A stretch of DNA of 6,425 bases from a virus, in the IMG/VR virus record IMGVR_UViG_3300020030_000048, positions 1-6,425 of that record; one strand, 5' to 3'. A model generated the notes under the pieces. The model made no database searches and was not told the origin of the DNA. It saw nothing but the letters and a program-made list of their open reading frames with translations. Both the position numbers and the translations under genes were made by a program. Every line of letters starts with the position of its first letter. The stretch's first letter is position 1. Shown piece by piece: positions 1-6,425 of the stretch.

Positions 1-121
1 AAATCCAATGGAATGGAAGGATTTAGGTCGCACCACTTTTGGCATCTGAGTATAAAAGTCGGGTAAAGCGACAAAACTATTAACATACGACGCAACATAC
101 GGAGCTGCGAATCCTCGCGAG
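1..121. repeat. Terminal redundancy, copy 1 (identical to 6305-6425); circular-contig overlap
   Basis: A base-by-base comparison of aaatccaatggaatggaagg...ggagctgcgaatcctcgcgag at both ends of the window shows a 121/121 match. It lies inside the VP4 coding sequence. Confidence 0.98.
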
Positions 122-828
122 AGTGACGCATCACAACGTCCGTAAGACCAAGCCTTAGATACATTTTCAAGAACAGTTTGCGAGAATCGTTCGGAATTGG
201 AAAACAATAACAGATGCCAATGCGGGCGGAAAGTCCTGGGGCCGTATTCAGATACAGCGTAGTAACGTAATTTTTCATCAGGGTAATAACTTCTTAAACG
301 TTTAAGGAACAAGTCAAGGTCGCGATTACATATATAAGGTATTCTATTTGAAATCGGGTACTTGATCTTATTAAGAATAGCCAACAAGTCTTTTGGATAC
401 ATAGGGTAGGAGAAGCGAACCTCTGGATCTTTAAAAGTACGTTCAACCGTAGAGCTTTTCAGACGGAGAGAAGCGATACGAGGAACGCTGCGAAAACCAA
501 ACAGATAACGATTATTGTCACAAGCGTCCAGACTATTAATATCGGGAACGCAGGATACATCCGCAATATCGTCTGAACAATTTTCAACAATCTCAACCTG
601 AAGAGTAGGCAAAAAGCGGTCAGCATAAGTGAGAGTGACAAAGTAAACAAAACGGAACTGCATAGAATAAGAAGTGAGCAAGTTGGTTTGAATGCCCGAA
701 CGACGAAGAACACAAGAGGGGCATTGGCCACAAGAAACTAAAACAGGCTCATGGGTATACTTGTTGATGACTGTACGGGGGTTCTGACAACGAGTCACTA
801 ACTTATTCTGCAATTCTTTAGTAATCAT
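1..828 (-). CDS. VP4: Replication initiation protein VP4 (rolling-circle HUH endonuclease), N-terminal 276 codons; the ORF runs off the window start and continues at 6304 on the circle. Full protein is 560 aa.
   Basis: I translated the minus strand myself from the ATG at 828-826: MITKELQNKLVTRCQNPRTVINKYTHEPVLVSCGQCPSCVLRRSGIQTNLLTSYSMQFRFVYFVTLTYADRF...LRYYAVSEYGPRTFRPHWHLLLFSNSERF...SRGFAAPYVASYVNSFVALPDFYTQ-MPKVVRPKSFHSIGF. The last stretch is the start of track ORF 5450..6349. There is no in-frame stop from 828 to 1, and an in-frame TAG lies upstream at 850-852. RCR motif 1 is FVTLTY (625-642). Motif 2 is HWH within RPHWHLLLF (214-222). Motif 3 is YVASYVN with two Tyr in Y-x3-Y spacing (85-99), as in phiX174 gene A. 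An N-terminal Cys cluster C..P...CGQCPSC is typical of gokusho/alpa-type VP4. Confidence 0.95.
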   Translation of the reverse strand, partial: MITKELQNKLVTRCQNPRTVINKYTHEPVLVSCGQCPSCVLRRSGIQTNLLTSYSMQFRFVYFVTLTYADRFLPTLQVEIVENCSDDIADVSCVPDINSLDACDNNRYLFGFRSVPRIASLRLKSSTVERTFKDPEVRFSYPMYPKDLLAILNKIKYPISNRIPYICNRDLDLFLKRLRSYYPDEKLRYYAVSEYGPRTFRPHWHLLLFSNSERFSQTVLENVSKAWSYGRCDASLSRGFAAPYVASYVNSFVALPDFYTQMPKVVRPKSFHSIGF

Positions 829-832
829 ACTA

Positions 833-1138
833 TTATCTATCAGTAAAATCTAATTCCATAAGGCGGGGCTTACGGGAACGAGTAAAAGAAATATGAACAA
901 AAGTGCGATACTTTATAAGTTGGTCAAAGTCGAAACCAGAGTTTTTGATTTTCAGGATAAACTCATCTATAGAAAAATAAAGAGGCTTTAAGTCAACAGC
1001 ATCGCCAGTCAAGTGCTGAGAATTGGAAGAACCTCCACACGCTATATTTTCGGCTTCAGTGCGAAAGGCGGAAGTAACAGTAAACTTAATGTTACTCCGA
1101 AGAAGCCACTCAATAAATTTCATTAACTTGGGGTTCAT
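833..1138 (-). CDS. Zinc D,D-/L,D-peptidase of the M15 (LAS / Peptidase_M15_3-like) family, 101 aa; putative peptidoglycan hydrolase (endolysin)
   Basis: The track ORF contains VTSAFRTEAENIACGGSSNSQHLTGDAVDL, which matches the M15 signature SxxR-x4-N-x3-GG-x3-SxH-x2-GxAxD. The C-terminal FVHISF matches the fvHvD motif. The zinc-ligand triad H42-x6-D49...H82 was verified at codons 1013-1015 (cac), 992-994 (gac) and 893-895 (cat). The stop TAA (833-835) lies 4 nt before the VP4 ATG, so the gene is packed in the same transcription unit. Confidence 0.85.
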   Translation of the reverse strand: MNPKLMKFIEWLLRSNIKFTVTSAFRTEAENIACGGSSNSQHLTGDAVDLKPLYFSIDEFILKIKNSGFDFDQLIKYRTFVHISFTRSRKPRLMELDFTDR

Positions 1139-1141
1139 GGC

Positions 1142-1231
1142 CTACGAAAATATTTGAGCAATAGACGTAAGGAGGCTAACAGCAGCTGCAATAATTGCAG
1201 ACCAAATTTTAGATTTAGTTTCACTTTTCAT
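1142..1231 (-). CDS. 29-aa single-pass membrane peptide (MKSETKSKIWSAIIAAAVSLLTSIAQIFS); SAR-like or holin/antiholin-like candidate
   Basis: The ATG at 1231-1229 overlaps the stop of the upstream 57-aa ORF (ctgATGAAAAGTGA). The peptide has a Lys-rich N-terminus followed by a 20-residue Ala/Ser/Ile/Leu stretch. Third codon positions are T-rich, like the certain genes. It ends in TAG (1142-1144) only 3 nt (GCC) before the peptidase ATG and in the same frame. The track lists a longer 66-aa version (1142..1342) whose N-terminal part is a +1-frame shadow of the 57-aa ORF. Confidence 0.4.
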   Translation of the reverse strand: MKSETKSKIWSAIIAAAVSLLTSIAQIFS

Positions 1232-1394
1232 CAGTAATTGCTTTAAAGGTTGAACACTGAGAGATGATAAGAATACAATCAGGACGAAGGTATGAAGAAA
1301 CGAATTCAGAAACTTCATCAACAGGAATAAGAATAGTCTCATTCTGATTAGGATTGACCTTCGATTGAATAGAACACAAATAATACTTTTCCAT
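1221..1394 (-). CDS. Hypothetical protein, 57 aa (not in the supplied ORF track, presumably below its length cut-off)
   Basis: My own translation from the ATG at 1394-1392: MEKYYLCSIQSKVNPNQNETILIPVDEVSEFVSSYLRPDCILIISQCSTFKAITDEK, with stop TGA at 1221-1223. The composition is balanced and hydrophilic. The overlapping 66-aa track ORF sits in its +1 frame and is Leu/Phe-rich, the pattern seen for shadow ORFs of every certain gene here. The ORF fills an otherwise unexplained gap in a very compact genome. I recognised no motif. Confidence 0.55.
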   Translation of the reverse strand: MEKYYLCSIQSKVNPNQNETILIPVDEVSEFVSSYLRPDCILIISQCSTFKAITDEK

Positions 1395-1412: not shown

Positions 1413-1610
1413 TTACGAAGGCAAATATACAGGAAAAATACAATAACAGGAGAATGTTAACGCAAAAATAACAATTATAAACATTAAGATAGATGCGTTA
1501 ACAATCACCATGAGAGAAGGGTAAATAAGGAGGTCTGTGAGTTTGCGTATATAAGACAAGAGAAGACTGAAAGCGATGAGGTAAATCGCTTTCCCTTCGG
1601 GCAAACTCAT
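1413..1610 (-). CDS. Small hydrophobic (2-3 TM) protein, 65 aa; possible holin-like membrane protein
   Basis: The track ORF is MSLPEGKAIYLIAFSLLLSYIRKLTDLLIYPSLMVIVNASILMFIIVIFALTFSCYCIFPVYLPS. It is the first ORF after the non-coding region, on the same strand as all genes, with pyrimidine-rich third positions. Caveats: T-rich sequence readily gives spurious hydrophobic ORFs, its 5' end contains a perfect 9-bp hairpin, and there is no charged C-terminal tail typical of holins. Confidence 0.4.
   Translation of the reverse strand: MSLPEGKAIYLIAFSLLLSYIRKLTDLLIYPSLMVIVNASILMFIIVIFALTFSCYCIFPVYLPS
1569..1593. repeat. Perfect 9-bp inverted repeat (hairpin), 7-nt loop
   Basis: gaaagcgat (1569-1577) pairs with atcgctttc (1585-1593), with loop gaggtaa. 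All nine pairs were checked individually. It lies just inside the 5' end of the 65-aa ORF, adjacent to the structured non-coding region. Function is unknown. Confidence 0.6.
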
Positions 1611-1889: not shown

Positions 1890-1946
1890 CGGGAGGTGTA
1901 TAACCACGCTTCGCGCGGTTGCCAGAAGTTACTCCAAGCAACAAAG

Positions 1947-1972
1947 CCCGACGCGCATCACTGCGAGTCGGG
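1947..1972 (-). terminator. Candidate intrinsic terminator / stable hairpin 26 nt downstream of the VP2 stop
   Basis: Plus strand cccgacgcgca-tcac-tgcgagtcggg gives 10 Watson-Crick pairs plus one G.A mismatch (1953/1966) and a 4-nt loop. On the coding strand it is followed by CTTTGTTGCTT (T-rich but interrupted). VP2 is the last gene of the unidirectional gene block. It could equally be an origin hairpin. Confidence 0.4.
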
Positions 1973-1997
1973 TAAAGAAAACAAACAACAAAATTAT

Positions 1998-3059
1998 CTA
2001 CCAGGGCAGAAAGTTTCCTATAGTATTACCGATAGAAGTACCATAATGAACGGCCTTATCAGCATCATAATACTTATATTTCTTGCCTTCATTACGAGAG
2101 CGATACCAATCCTCAATACTACGAGAACGAGCACGTTCACGATTATACTTAGAAGCTTCAAGTTCGAATTCTGCATTAGAGTGATTTGAAGCGTTAGAAG
2201 CACGAATCAAAGAATCGGCAGTAGCTTCAGCAACCTTATTGCTGATTTTCTGACCTTTGGCACGGGCATAAGTCAATACCTCATCAGCGAGAACCTTCTT
2301 GGCCTGGTTATAATTCAGATGTCCATGAGACATCTGGTTATAATACTCAGAAGCCTTGACGTTCAGATCAGCCTGCTGCTGCTGGTCAAGATACCTGTTA
2401 AGAACAGTCTTAGCTTCAGCGTCAAGCAACTGAGAAGTACCTTGGGCCTGCAAAAGACGTCCGGCAAAAGCCATATTATCAAGTTCCTGCATTTCCTTAG
2501 AATATCCAAGCTGGGCACGAGCCAAACCAGTAGCTTTCAGATACTCACGAGTCTCTTTCGTCATCTTAGACCAATCGACATTGGAAAGAGCCTGCATAGC
2601 CTGGGCATCCGCAAGATTCTTCTGGCCTTGCAACTGAGATACCTGAGCTTGCTGAACCTGAGACTGAAAAACAGAGCCTATAGACTGAGCAATACCAGAA
2701 TAATCAGCCTGAAAAGGTTGCATCTGAGCATTGCCAGAAGATGAAGCAGTAGCACCGGCACCAACAGAACCAGCAGCACCAGCAGAACCACCGTTCATCA
2801 TCAGATAAGGATTTAAGCCAGCTTCTTCGAGACGTTGGCGTTGGGCAGAAGCAGTGTTATAAGCATTTTCCTTATTCCACATATTTTCCTGCCAGTGACG
2901 CTGCTGCATAGACATACGTTCGTTGAACTGGTTATTCATCTGATTTATCTTATAATTCATTTGGTTAGTTTCACGAACGGACTGAGCATTCTGAGCATTC
3001 TGCATCGCAGAAGAACCAGCACCGAACAATCCACCAACCAAAGATCCTAGAAGACCCAT
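1998..3059 (-). CDS. VP2: Minor capsid / DNA pilot protein VP2, 353 aa
   Basis: The track ORF has a Gly-rich hydrophobic N-terminus MGLLGSLVGGLFGAGSSAMQNAQ. This is followed by NYKINQMNNQFNERMSMQQRHWQENMWNKENAYNTASAQRQRLEEAGLNPYLMM, a Gly/Ala/Ser tract and a long Gln/Ala-rich helical region, which is the characteristic architecture of gokusho/alpa-type VP2. Its start overlaps the upstream stop as TAATG (3057-3061), implying translational coupling. The stop is TAG at 1998-2000. Confidence 0.9.
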   Translation of the reverse strand: MGLLGSLVGGLFGAGSSAMQNAQNAQSVRETNQMNYKINQMNNQFNERMSMQQRHWQENMWNKENAYNTASAQRQRLEEAGLNPYLMMNGGSAGAAGSVGAGATASSSGNAQMQPFQADYSGIAQSIGSVFQSQVQQAQVSQLQGQKNLADAQAMQALSNVDWSKMTKETREYLKATGLARAQLGYSKEMQELDNMAFAGRLLQAQGTSQLLDAEAKTVLNRYLDQQQQADLNVKASEYYNQMSHGHLNYNQAKKVLADEVLTYARAKGQKISNKVAEATADSLIRASNASNHSNAEFELEASKYNRERARSRSIEDWYRSRNEGKKYKYYDADKAVHYGTSIGNTIGNFLPW

Positions 3060-3538
3060 TATTCAGAAGCAGCGGAAGAATCGGCAGCAGCAACCTTTTC
3101 CGCTTCTTGTTTAGCGTTTTCGGCTTCAATTAAAGATTGGGCCTCATGTTCAAGAGCTTCAGCATGAGCAGCAAGCTCTTTAGACCAAGCAATAATCTCA
3201 GACGGTGACTGAACGTGTCGAGATCGAACTGTAGACAAAAGATCATCATCAGACATGGTATCCATAATCTGTTGTATCTGAGAAGCAGAATTACGGCTCT
3301 GACCGAACTTGGAAGCAATAGCCAAACCAGCACGAGAGGCCAAGTCTTTAGTATGAAGAATCAAACGAACATCAGACGTATAACGAACAGGACGATCTTC
3401 ATTCGTTTCATCAATTTCAACACGAAGTTCTTCGGTAGAATCAAACTCGGGAGCGACAGCAAAAACATCCGGCTCAACATTAGGAACAAGTTCAGAACAT
3501 TGGCCCAAACTTTCCAAAGAATTAAACTTTCCTATCAT
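3059..3538 (-). CDS. Acidic 159-aa protein, putative internal scaffolding protein (VP3-like)
   Basis: The track ORF is strongly acidic (runs of D/E, e.g. EELRVEIDETNED and a C-terminal EALEHEAQSLIEAENAKQEAEK helix). It sits between VP1 and VP2 and is coupled to VP2 by a TAATG overlap. The size, charge and SRHVQSPSE-type segment resemble microvirus VP3 scaffolds as I remember them. Coding status is solid, but the functional label is an inference. Confidence 0.7.
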   Translation of the reverse strand: MIGKFNSLESLGQCSELVPNVEPDVFAVAPEFDSTEELRVEIDETNEDRPVRYTSDVRLILHTKDLASRAGLAIASKFGQSRNSASQIQQIMDTMSDDDLLSTVRSRHVQSPSEIIAWSKELAAHAEALEHEAQSLIEAENAKQEAEKVAAADSSAASE

Positions 3539-3566: not shown

Positions 3567-5426
3567 TTAGTAAGGAACACCATCACGGGATAAGTTACGG
3601 GCAACATAGCAACCAATATAAGAGTTAACTAACAACTGGTCAGTATCCCAAGTAGAATCAGCATTAACACCGAAGATCGGATCAAGAACAGAAGGATTGA
3701 CCTTGAAGAACTTGTAATTCAAAGCAACCTTAGTTGACGAATCGGGAGTAGAACCACCAAAACGAGACCAACCGGAAAGTAAAGACTCAGTAACAGGAGA
3801 AACCCAAGACTTAAGAGTCGTGGTAAACGCACCGTTGATGACATCAAGTTTAGTTTTCCAGTTGAAGTAACGAGGATTATAACCTGCATTGAACAAGTTG
3901 AAAGCAGTAGCTAATGAAGAGTTGAATATCTGGGTCATAGGAAGAACCTCCATACCAATGCTATCAAACTCAGGAATCGGAAGGGACTCAGCATCGGTAA
4001 CAAGCAACTGTCCATCCTGGCCAGTAATGGAGTAATCAAGAAGAGGAACGGCATGATACATACACATAACGACACAATGCTCATCAGTAATATAAGTGAA
4101 AGAACCGTTTCCTGCACCAACACCTTTACCGGCAATAACAGCAGTATCACCTTCAGTAGCAAGGTTATTATTTACAACTTCGCTAATATCAAGATTACGA
4201 GAGATACCACCAATATAAGTACACATATTGGAAAGAGATTGGGGGAGATTAACGCCAAAATGTTTACGAATCTGTTCGCGGTAATCCGAATCACCGGATT
4301 GACTAATCTCTTTCCACCGTTGAAGGGCCTCGGCTTGACGAAGGGCGAGAACAGTAAATTGACTCTGTAAATTGGACAAGTTAACCTGGAGAGTAGAACC
4401 GGAAGGAATGACATTAGACGTAGAAGCAGAGTTTGCTGCGAAAGATATCGGAGTAAGAGGGGCATTGTGAGAAGTCGTAGTAATAACCTCAGAAGAAGCA
4501 TTACTTTTTGGATCTTTCAATACTACAGAATTAGGAATAGGACCATTAGTATTTGAAATATCAATCACAGCAACGTCACCGAACTGAGAATTCGGAAGAA
4601 CACCCATCAACATATCCTTGTTCCAGTTACAATATCTGAGGTCAAACATCGTATCAGAGTCCCAATAAGCAGAATTCTTAGGGGGCAATGAAGAAACAAG
4701 ACCAGAAGTAAGGCCAGAATAATAATCCACATTATAAGAAGACGGATTCGAATATTCCCACTGAGACCAACGGAAAAAATCCTGATAAATCTTCTGATAA
4801 GCCAAAAGAGGGAAAAGGTTCACATAATTATTCTGAATATACTGTTGAGAATAAGAAGCAGCATCATTAGTATTCACTAAAGAAGTAGACCACCAACGAT
4901 TATCAGCAGAGGGTATAGTACGAACGAAATTCCCATAACCAAGATAGCTTAATAACTTAAAGGACAAATCAGCACGAGAAAAACCAAACATATTCAGCTT
5001 TCCTTCAGAAAAGCCAGGATTATTACTACCACCATTAAGGTATTGAACGAAAGAATATATAAGGTTTAGAGGAAGAGACGGTAAGTAAGTTCCGAGAGAC
5101 AAATTCTGCGTCAAAGAAAGTGCTTGAATCTGATTAATATCCTGTATCTGTGTCAACACAGAAGGAGCAGACTTCCAGAGAAGACGCAACGGCACAGCAT
5201 AGAAATCAAAATATTCACGCAGACGAGTATAGGCAGAGGTCTCAACAGGCTGAGTGCGGGTAAAGTACTCAACGTCAAACTTATACTTGTCACCAGGCAT
5301 AGATATATCCCAGTAGACAGGGAGAAGCTCACCAACTTTTGCGGTAAACGCATTTTTACGTCCAATATCAAAGCCAGAACGGTGAGGACGGTTCTGGAGA
5401 TTGGACATTCCAGTGTAAGAAGCCAT
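3567..5426 (-). CDS. VP1: Major capsid protein VP1 (F-like jelly-roll capsid protein), 619 aa
   Basis: The track ORF carries conserved microvirus capsid blocks: N-terminal RSGFDIGRKNAFTAKVGELLPVYWDISMPGDKY, YFDFYAVPLRLLW, LALRQAEALQRWKEISQSGDSDYREQIRKHFGV, MCTYIGG and GYNPRYFNWK. It is the longest ORF in the genome. The stop is TAA at 3567-3569. Confidence 0.97.
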   Translation of the reverse strand: MASYTGMSNLQNRPHRSGFDIGRKNAFTAKVGELLPVYWDISMPGDKYKFDVEYFTRTQPVETSAYTRLREYFDFYAVPLRLLWKSAPSVLTQIQDINQIQALSLTQNLSLGTYLPSLPLNLIYSFVQYLNGGSNNPGFSEGKLNMFGFSRADLSFKLLSYLGYGNFVRTIPSADNRWWSTSLVNTNDAASYSQQYIQNNYVNLFPLLAYQKIYQDFFRWSQWEYSNPSSYNVDYYSGLTSGLVSSLPPKNSAYWDSDTMFDLRYCNWNKDMLMGVLPNSQFGDVAVIDISNTNGPIPNSVVLKDPKSNASSEVITTTSHNAPLTPISFAANSASTSNVIPSGSTLQVNLSNLQSQFTVLALRQAEALQRWKEISQSGDSDYREQIRKHFGVNLPQSLSNMCTYIGGISRNLDISEVVNNNLATEGDTAVIAGKGVGAGNGSFTYITDEHCVVMCMYHAVPLLDYSITGQDGQLLVTDAESLPIPEFDSIGMEVLPMTQIFNSSLATAFNLFNAGYNPRYFNWKTKLDVINGAFTTTLKSWVSPVTESLLSGWSRFGGSTPDSSTKVALNYKFFKVNPSVLDPIFGVNADSTWDTDQLLVNSYIGCYVARNLSRDGVPY

Positions 5427-5449: not shown

Positions 5450-6425
5450 TTAATCAGAATAGGAAAATATACCAGATAAATCATTGAGATTCTTGTGTTT
5501 AACCTTATCTCTACACTTCATCAGTGCAGCAGCAGCCAAACGACGAACAAGAGGCAATTGTTTATAAGGTAATTCCTTGTCAAAGACAGTTTTATCATAA
5601 CGGAAAGAATAGTTACGAAGTTCCATATCAAGCAAATCCTTATCATCAGAATCTTCCAAGGTTTGATAAAAATCAACAAGACGGGCATAATCGTAACGAA
5701 GCCAAAAATCAACTATTTTTTCGGAGAGAATTCGTAAAGATCTCTCTCGGCAGCCGGCATATCCTCCAAGTTCGGAGAGGGGGACACCATCTGACTCGTA
5801 TGTTCGAAAAGTTTTTGCAACTCCGAGAAAAAAGCGGTATAATCGGGACGTGCGATGAACAGGTGATAGATCAACACCATCAAACAGACGACATTCAGAC
5901 GTAATAAGAATATCAGCATGCGGTAGATTTTCCTTAGGTGAAAGAACATTTCTTTCGTCATTTCGTTTTCCATAATTATCCAAGTAACTTAAATATTGTT
6001 TACAAAAAGATAGTATACTTTGTTTGGAAGATTTATTCCAAGGATCAAGATCTAAATCACCGCATCCGCTACGAATGACTCGTTCGGGCGCTGTGAACGC
6101 AGCAGATAATAACTGGTAAACGTTCGATGAAGATTTACGAATAGCGTCCGAAAATCGGGGGAATAATCGAAGGAGATGCGGCCATGAAGGTTTAATTGTG
6201 CGAAAAAATCCATCGCGCTCAACGCGGACTCCATTAAGGCACTTATCGGCAACTTCATCAATTTCGGCAATTTGTACCGTTCGAGGAAAGTAATATGATT
6301 CAGTAAATCCAATGGAATGGAAGGATTTAGGTCGCACCACTTTTGGCATCTGAGTATAAAAGTCGGGTAAAGCGACAAAACTATTAACATACGACGCAAC
6401 ATACGGAGCTGCGAATCCTCGCGAG
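5450..6425 (-). CDS. VP4: Replication initiation protein VP4, C-terminal part (codons continuing from window position 1); 6305-6425 re-reads the same codons as 1-121
   Basis: The track ORF 5450..6349 (MPKVVRPKSFHSIGF...) is in frame with, and contiguous to, the 828->1 reading frame: 6349 corresponds to position 45 in copy 1, and 828-45 = 783 = 3 x 261. The frame stays open from 6349 up to the window end and contains the YVASYVN motif again at 6389-6403. The stop is TAA at 5450-5452. The roughly 290 aa after the catalytic Tyr motif have no motif I recognise. Confidence 0.93.
   Translation of the reverse strand, partial: SRGFAAPYVASYVNSFVALPDFYTQMPKVVRPKSFHSIGFTESYYFPRTVQIAEIDEVADKCLNGVRVERDGFFRTIKPSWPHLLRLFPRFSDAIRKSSSNVYQLLSAAFTAPERVIRSGCGDLDLDPWNKSSKQSILSFCKQYLSYLDNYGKRNDERNVLSPKENLPHADILITSECRLFDGVDLSPVHRTSRLYRFFLGVAKTFRTYESDGVPLSELGGYAGCRERSLRILSEKIVDFWLRYDYARLVDFYQTLEDSDDKDLLDMELRNYSFRYDKTVFDKELPYKQLPLVRRLAAAALMKCRDKVKHKNLNDLSGIFSYSD
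6305..6425. repeat. Terminal redundancy, copy 2 (identical to 1-121)
   Basis: See copy 1. The 121/121 identity was read directly from the sequence. Confidence 0.98.

Follow-up and report, generated by a model that had tools for sequence, protein, structure and literature searches.

A truncated M15A peptidase and an adjoining conserved transmembrane mini-gene as a candidate lysis module of an alpavirus-like microvirus

Peptidase genes in microviruses are already known; reports and annotations of them go back more than ten years. Roux et al. (2012) described M15_3 genes in 11 Microviridae, 6 of which were Alpavirinae, showed that they had been acquired horizontally, and proposed an endolysin role (PMC3394797). 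Kirchberger et al. (2022) listed peptidases among the recurrent lysis-associated accessory genes, and M15 genes are also present in cultured microviruses of Roseobacter, Ruegeria, and Bacteroides fragilis (phiHBP1: PMC13064476). The microviral peptidase has been acquired repeatedly and is not universal (PMC3394797, PMC9239249, PMC9865509). The literature that we searched contained neither an enzymatic, biochemical, or genetic test of any M15 peptidase from a microvirus nor a microviral holin. The lysis function of the microvirus phiX174 is protein E, an amurin that inhibits MraY; it is small, overprinted, and non-enzymatic and has one N-terminal transmembrane (TM) helix. To our knowledge, lysis by microviruses outside the phiX174 group has no experimental demonstration. 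Such microviruses are among the most abundant phages of mammalian guts.

According to a 2026 paper, verified M15A phage endolysins number only three, none of them from microviruses (PMC13461873). The endolysin of Burkholderia phage ST79 (149 aa) is experimentally lytic (PMC5025407), and its gene is flanked by those for a holin and spanins. LysPM1 of Proteus phage Homer is a smaller enzyme of 116 aa (PMC13461873). The type enzyme of M15A is the Streptomyces albus G zinc D-Ala-D-Ala carboxypeptidase (1LBU). EndoT5 (PDB 2MXZ), an M15C L-alanyl-D-glutamate peptidase, has the LAS fold and represents a different subfamily.

The window analyzed here is the whole 6,425-nt stretch of viral DNA. Its first and last 121 nt (1..121 and 6305..6425) are identical; it is therefore a complete circular 6304-nt genome whose ends overlap through assembly. 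The minus strand carries every gene of the circular genome. These encode the major capsid protein VP1 (5426..3567; Pfam Phage_F, E=2e-25; PHROG 514, E=1.7e-63), a scaffold-like protein of 159 aa (3538..3059), and the DNA pilot protein VP2 (3059..1998; PHROG 8689), followed by a block of small ORFs, the peptidase gene (833..1138; 101 codons plus stop, ATG start), and the replication initiator VP4. The linearization point splits the replication initiator gene into a 5' part (1..828, ATG at 826-828) and a 3' part (5450..6304) that are joined after circularization, which explains why the ORF listing gives merely a 299-aa Rep fragment. The circularized ORF encodes 560 aa with the rolling-circle motifs FVTLTY, HWHLLLF, and YVASYV. 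The accessory block is ordered ORF57, mini-TM ORF, and M15 gene, with ORF57 first, and the Rep ATG lies 4 nt past the peptidase stop. The genome is that of an alpavirus-like microvirus, and the microvirus origin proposed in an earlier note on this DNA is confirmed.

The nearest GenBank relatives are eight microvirus records from lemur and rodent feces, with ~80% nucleotide identity over 90-95% of the genome and a gene order identical to that of the window. They represent four named viruses: Dulem virus 257 (five records), Dulem virus 236, and bajarodmic viruses 1134 and 410. The nearest genomes label the counterpart of the window gene “peptidase,” and the GenBank microviral “peptidase” proteins share 75-77% amino acid identity with the window protein and differ from it in nothing essential. 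The window gene thus has the same Pfam family, virus group, and place between the pilot block and Rep as the Microviridae M15_3/M15A genes described previously (PMC3394797; Dulem virus 257, bajarodmic virus 1134). The earlier note had described such ORFs as sporadic in metagenomic microviruses. That they had been seen before is correct, but they are not sporadic: in an alpavirus-like clade of very high abundance the gene is fixed, and GenBank carries annotations of it. A more distant case is the B. fragilis phage phiHBP1, whose full-length 134-aa M15A protein is encoded after Rep and is only 35% identical to the window protein (PMC13064476). We also noticed that the window peptidase stops one codon before those of its relatives (101 versus 102 aa) and lacks the ATGA through which the genes of four of them overlap the start of Rep by 4 nt (L001-L004; window 826..835).

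The peptidase gene (minus strand) encodes the protein MNPKLMKFIEWLLRSNIKFTVTSAFRTEAENIACGGSSNSQHLTGDAVDLKPLYFSIDEFILKIKNSGFDFDQLIKYRTFVHISFTRSRKPRLMELDFTDR. It matches Pfam PF08291, Peptidase_M15_3, with 47.7 bits (E=1.9e-12) against a gathering score of 23.2 bits, residues 16-84 aligning with profile positions 40-108, and it matches PHROG 894, “endolysin,” at E=2e-17. Agreement of this strength greatly exceeds what chance would produce. The match to PF13539 (M15_4/VanY) is weak (E=0.092) and under threshold, which places the protein in M15_3/M15A and outside the VanY/T5 subgroup. At E<=1e-3, a protein database yielded 1488 homologues; identity is at least 78% in each of the best 120, and many lie on contigs of ~6.2-6.4 kb. 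Among the matches in the representative library was a 1611-aa protein (P0124) with 11 separate stretches that match the peptidase at 36% identity, apparently a multi-repeat M15A protein.

The active-site motifs were read on the DNA: SAFR (R26), G35-G36 within GG-SSN-SQH, S40-Q41-H42, G45-D46-A47-V48-D49, and F80-V81-H82. The key codons are those of R26 (1061-1063), H42 (1013-1015; gtg on the plus strand, hence CAC), D49 (992-994; GAC), and H82 (893-895; CAT). The zinc motif S-x-H-x-x-G-x-A-x-D is present as S40-Q-H42-L-T-G45-D-A47-V-D49 and is invariant in 41 aligned relatives. The third zinc-ligand motif, (W/F)-x-H, is present as F80-V-H82, 33 residues past D49, where the M15A criterion places this His ~33-36 residues after the Asp. 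R26 sits 16 residues ahead of H42, and both this Arg and the (W/F)-x-H motif are invariant in the 41 relatives as well as in the alignment with tailed-phage homologues. The alignment of the 41 relatives has 42 invariant positions, all motif residues among them, and the microviral and tailed-phage homologues together leave S23, R26, N31, G36, S40, H42, G45, A47, D49, D72, Q73, I75, H82, and R92 invariant. The spacings of 16 residues from Arg to His and 7 from His to Asp equal those of 1LBU and LysPM1 (LysPM1: PMC13461873). This conservation suggests that H42, D49, and H82 hold the zinc ion and that R26 contacts the substrate carboxylate, with the invariant D72 as a candidate general base.

The window protein resembles ST79 endolysin and LysPM1 in being a single-domain M15_3 protein that lacks a binding domain and a signal peptide, and the three have the SxHxxGxAxD and (W/F)xH motifs, the Arg, and the spacings in common. 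ST79 endolysin aligns with 37% identity over 75 residues (E=2e-11), pairing H42 with H77, D49 with D84, and H82 with the histidine of W-V-H. In 1LBU, R138, H154, and D161 align with R26, H42, and D49; unlike the phage protein, this enzyme has 213 aa and an N-terminal wall-binding domain, is secreted, and carries H-x-H where the phage protein has F-x-H. EndoT5 shares the TGDA[IV]D motif, and its H66 and D73 align with H42 and D49, but the sequence match to 2MXZ reaches only E=0.054. Searches of PDB sequences with the protein and the profile were weak throughout (E 0.05-0.4) and are good for motif alignment only.

An AF2 model built on 41 relatives had a mean pLDDT of 84.9. Among predicted viral structures (BFVD), it had 35 matches at E<=1e-3; all the named ones are peptidases or cell-wall hydrolases, mostly M15A, and four are microvirus peptidases. 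The top PDB fold matches were LysB4, the N-domain of Sonic hedgehog (Shh-N), Ply500, and 1LBU, with probabilities of at least 0.98 and E values of only ~1e-2; all four are LAS-fold proteins. The predicted fold is thus of the Hedgehog/DD-peptidase (LAS) type. The earlier note had described ORF 833-1138, with its strand unstated, as a 101-aa LAS/M15 zinc peptidase bearing H-x6-D...H and a substrate Arg, and had suggested a profile search and a structure prediction as checks; the DNA, the Pfam and PHROG profiles, the modeled fold, and the alignments all agree with that description. Its comparison with T5 Lys holds for the common LAS fold and fails for the subfamily, which is M15A (1LBU; ST79, LysPM1) and not T5/VanY.

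Some 35 residues at the N-terminal end of the canonical domain are missing from the window lineage. Absent are the segment F-[ST]-L-x-E-[FLM]...N-x-P, which ST79 endolysin and LysPM1 possess, and part of the next helix (profile positions 1-39; full-length alignment). When 1.84 billion representatives were searched, the closest relatives were ~100 aa long and aligned end to end; further relatives were mostly 130-150 aa, and query residue 16-20 met their residue 50-57. Against canonical relatives of 130-150 aa, the protein is indeed unusually small, as the earlier note had held, and the reduction is modest given that the verified LysPM1 has only 116 aa. Because the missing segment holds no catalytic-site feature, we treat the lineage as a truncated form and keep it in the family. 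As judged from the alignments, all residues that do not vary among tailed-phage endolysin homologues are retained in the short form.

With the N-terminal third of the canonical domain missing and a Ser replacing the Asp two residues past the last zinc His, the truncated protein might be suspected of being a catalytically dead relic or a binding module. LysPM1 has Asp at this His+2 position, where it is the proposed acid catalyst (PMC13461873). Ser, however, is found at H82+2 not only in the window lineage but also in the full-length tailed-phage homologues Salva, Bm1, and P26059A, so that it is a subfamily trait and no sign of decay; such H-x-S proteins include full-length endolysins that reside in lysis cassettes. 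The zinc ligands, the Arg, and the SxHxxGxAxD and FxH motifs are invariant in the 41 aligned relatives, and the peptidase is under purifying selection, with a dN/dS of 0.19 in 65 distinct clade sequences. These data make a dead relic or binding module highly improbable and suggest that the truncated form is an active enzyme.

The peptidase has no hydrophobic N-terminus, signal peptide, or TM segment, its highest Kyte-Doolittle 19-residue mean being 0.58; the earlier note was right that neither a signal peptide nor a binding domain is present. As it has no hydrophobic segment, the peptidase would need a membrane lesion to reach the wall. Its closest tailed-phage homologues lie in canonical lysis cassettes, which comprise endolysin, holin/antiholin, holin, and spanins in Salva; holin, one ORF, and endolysin in Bm1; and holin, endolysin, and spanins in ST79. 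M15A domains also occur within tail and tape-measure proteins of tailed phages (BFVD: tape measure protein, Gp5-like, “cell wall hydrolase”), and the peptidase could by analogy be a virion-borne entry enzyme that opens the wall locally at genome delivery. We regard this as very unlikely. The best sequence relatives are free-standing endolysins and not domains of virion proteins, the gene is missing from sister phages whose capsid and pilot proteins are the same, genome delivery by microviruses is ascribed to the pilot protein, and nothing connects the peptidase ORF with the structural block. The context favors lysis over entry.

Directly upstream of the peptidase lies a second conserved gene, the mini-TM ORF (1142..1231, minus strand), which was missed by the earlier note and which bears on wall access because the peptidase has no signal peptide. 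It encodes 29 aa, MKSETKSKIWSAIIAAAVSLLTSIAQIFS, with a basic N-terminus followed by one predicted TM helix. The Kyte-Doolittle maximum (19-residue window) is 1.88 at residues 9-27, hydrophobic enough for a membrane span. The ORF is present in 69 of the 71 genomes of clade 1, the window's clade, where its variable sites fall on codon positions 1, 2, and 3 as 11/5/22 and its dN/dS is 0.09. It evolves as coding sequence under strong constraint, stronger than that on the peptidase (0.09 versus 0.19). In clade 2, whose peptidase is 45-50% identical, an equivalent peptide of 26-29 aa with the consensus M..N.W.IIIGAVSAALGYVLN.LGL is encoded in all nine genomes. The mini-TM ORF is absent from the annotation of the nearest GenBank records; several records omit it or fuse its wrong frame to the peptidase, and some pipelines label it “hypothetical protein [Microviridae sp.]”. 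In Dulem viruses 238, 243, and 226 (L008, L009, and L013; locus 1138-1200), for instance, the 124-aa CDS annotated as “peptidase” begins 63 nt too early, and its N-terminal extension (MENHHWCCLCC...) is the mini-TM ORF in the wrong frame. The conserved mini-gene beside the peptidase is new here.

The mini-TM stop lies 3 nt ahead of the peptidase ATG in the window and overlaps the peptidase start as ATGA in the nine clade-2 genomes and likewise in mar62. Since the stop is within a few nucleotides of, or overlaps, the peptidase start in every lineage examined, coupled translation is suggested. In most clade-1 genomes the two ORFs share a frame, with one stop and one codon between them (window 1139..1144; L015-L078), and readthrough there would give a membrane-anchored peptidase. 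As a general mechanism we rejected such a fusion, because the ORFs lie in different frames in three clade-1 genomes (L033, L043, and L065), in mar62, and throughout clade 2. We likewise rejected a 66-aa ORF (1142..1342) with a weak holin match (E=0.017): conservation with a universal start is confined to its last 29 codons, its upstream part is an alternative frame of ORF57, and two relatives (L002, L003) have no start there.

Tailed-phage holins and pinholins resemble the mini-ORF product in being small membrane-spanning proteins encoded next to, and probably co-translated with, a soluble wall hydrolase. The holin trait that the mini-ORF displays is a TM helix in a small protein adjoining a candidate endolysin. 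Similarity to holin families was not significant, the best PHROG match being holin phrog_443 at E=0.13, and a charged hydrophilic C-terminal tail is absent, the peptide ending 1-2 residues past the hydrophobic stretch. With 26-30 aa, one TM helix, and no charged tail, the mini-ORF products are also shorter than holins; we know of none as short, the smallest having ~60-70 aa. Whereas the ST79 endolysin gene is flanked by holin and spanins, the sole membrane-segment neighbor of the window peptidase is the 29-aa peptide, and no spanin-like gene was evident in the window genome. The mini-gene product is a candidate for a holin-like partner of the peptidase or for a primary lysis factor in its own right.

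Related phages without a peptidase bear on this choice. Bajarodmic virus 429 and Dipodfec virus 499 lack the peptidase and have an ORF57-like gene and a similar TM peptide of 26-30 aa directly before Rep; in the peptidase-less Dulem viruses 244 and 245, a 65-aa TM protein occupies the same place. The peptides of peptidase-bearing and peptidase-less phages align gap-free in the hydrophobic core, with W10, I13, and A16 conserved. As sister phages without the peptidase have and keep such a peptide, it is not strictly a partner of the peptidase and looks older than the peptidase insertion. The peptide might then be the primary lysis protein, either a tiny holin or a single-gene lysis factor that, in the manner of phiX174 E or the 37-aa LysM, blocks the synthesis of the wall, and the peptidase a dispensable, horizontally gained accelerator. 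The lower dN/dS of the mini-ORF and the repeated, non-universal acquisition of the peptidase (PMC3394797, PMC9239249, PMC9865509) fit this proposal as well. The mini-ORF product, and not the peptidase, is what resembles phiX174 E, being small with a single TM helix; the window peptidase gene is free-standing and horizontally acquired, and the window has no E homologue. Short TM peptides may, however, come to resemble each other by convergence, the peptidase-bearing phages mar63 and phiHBP1 have no recognizable mini-peptide, and a membrane role in replication, assembly, or superinfection exclusion is equally possible. A primary lysis peptide with a dispensable peptidase is conceivable, and we consider it rather doubtful.

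In Microvirus mar63 (L006), the mini-TM ORF is replaced by a cationic amphipathic ORF of 40 aa, MKRFLYELKRLLPLLKQVYPLIKSLLSACVRYLKNRRKNE (1932..2054, minus strand), which is overprinted on the end of the ORF57 homologue. A scan for an equivalent in phiHBP1 gave only overprinted hydrophobic ORFs, which are probably spurious. That some peptidase-bearing microviruses have no evident membrane partner is compatible with an enzyme that acts without one. Like VanX or VanY, the peptidase could cleave the D-Ala-D-Ala or the stem peptide of wall precursors in the cytoplasm (UDP-MurNAc-pentapeptide, lipid II), deprive wall synthesis of its substrate, and so cause holin-free lysis, an enzymatic counterpart of the phiX174 strategy. 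[quoted passage not shown] On the other hand, the nearest homologues are endolysins within holin/spanin cassettes, the verified M15A endolysins attack sacculi from outside (PMC5025407, PMC13461873), and the tight linkage to the TM peptide fits export through a membrane lesion. We consider cleavage of precursors unlikely.

The first gene of the accessory block, ORF57 (1221..1394, minus strand), encodes an acidic soluble protein of 57 aa that is conserved in all seven genomes compared (dN/dS 0.14). Small ORFs similar to it occur in peptidase-less alpaviruses. A 54-aa ORF of phiHBP1 resembles ORF57 at its start, where blastp gave no alignment, its match being on other residues with only E=0.029. 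About 30 nt upstream of ORF57 lies TATATTTG (1422..1429, minus strand), which matches the Bacteroides -7 promoter consensus TAnnTTTG; 29 of 36 related loci have such a motif at most 80 nt upstream. A 65-aa hydrophobic ORF at 1413..1610 was discarded as a holin candidate. Its C-terminus is unconserved, it spans the prophage attachment core, and its conserved 5' part falls on a hairpin whose stem has 9 bp, so it is probably no gene. The hairpin itself (1569..1593, minus strand; GAAAGCGAT-ttacctc-ATCGCTTTC) is conserved across relatives and might be an origin or a terminator.

A 355-kb bacterial scaffold carries an almost identical sister genome as an integrated prophage, flanked by a gene for a TPR protein, which adjoins gyrA, and by a Usp-family gene. 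The junctions (L087, ~7462-7492 and 13955-13975) carry a direct repeat of ~22 nt, ATTAAACAT(A/T)(A/C)TCCATATATTG, that corresponds to a dif-like attachment core at window positions 1441-1461 (minus strand), GTTAACATTCTCCTGTTATTG on the window's sense strand. One arm of the repeat resembles the XerD arm of dif. The integrated sister genome indicates that the clade is temperate, a lifestyle that has been described for Alpavirinae. A search of genome contigs for the host of the scaffold gave only distant matches in Alphaproteobacteria.

Together, these data lead us to the reading that we prefer, with moderate confidence: the truncated M15A peptidase is a phage endolysin, and the 29-aa TM peptide most plausibly opens the membrane for it. 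The peptidase, which has no export signal, would be produced in the cytoplasm at a late stage of infection. The single-TM peptide encoded directly upstream would breach the inner membrane, and the released peptidase would cut peptide stems or cross-links of the peptidoglycan of the host, which is probably a member of the Bacteroidota. Membrane peptide and soluble endolysin would thus form a two-gene lysis module. A broader version of this proposal we advance only tentatively, as a possibility: the 26-30-aa TM peptide may be the lysis trigger of alpavirus-like phages at large, as the smallest holin or a new kind of single-gene lysis peptide, with the M15A gene inserted behind it and coupled to it in a cassette of ~400 nt, which would be the most compact known.

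The peptidase itself adds nothing new to what is known of microviruses; the interest lies in the lysis mechanism and in the adjoining conserved mini-gene. A naturally minimized M15A enzyme of ~100 aa and a coupled TM mini-gene offer a concrete two-gene hypothesis that is testable by simple expression, and the existence of a Bacteroides-infecting microvirus isolate makes it more so. The short enzyme may, in addition, be a useful small scaffold in studies of Gram-negative endolysins.
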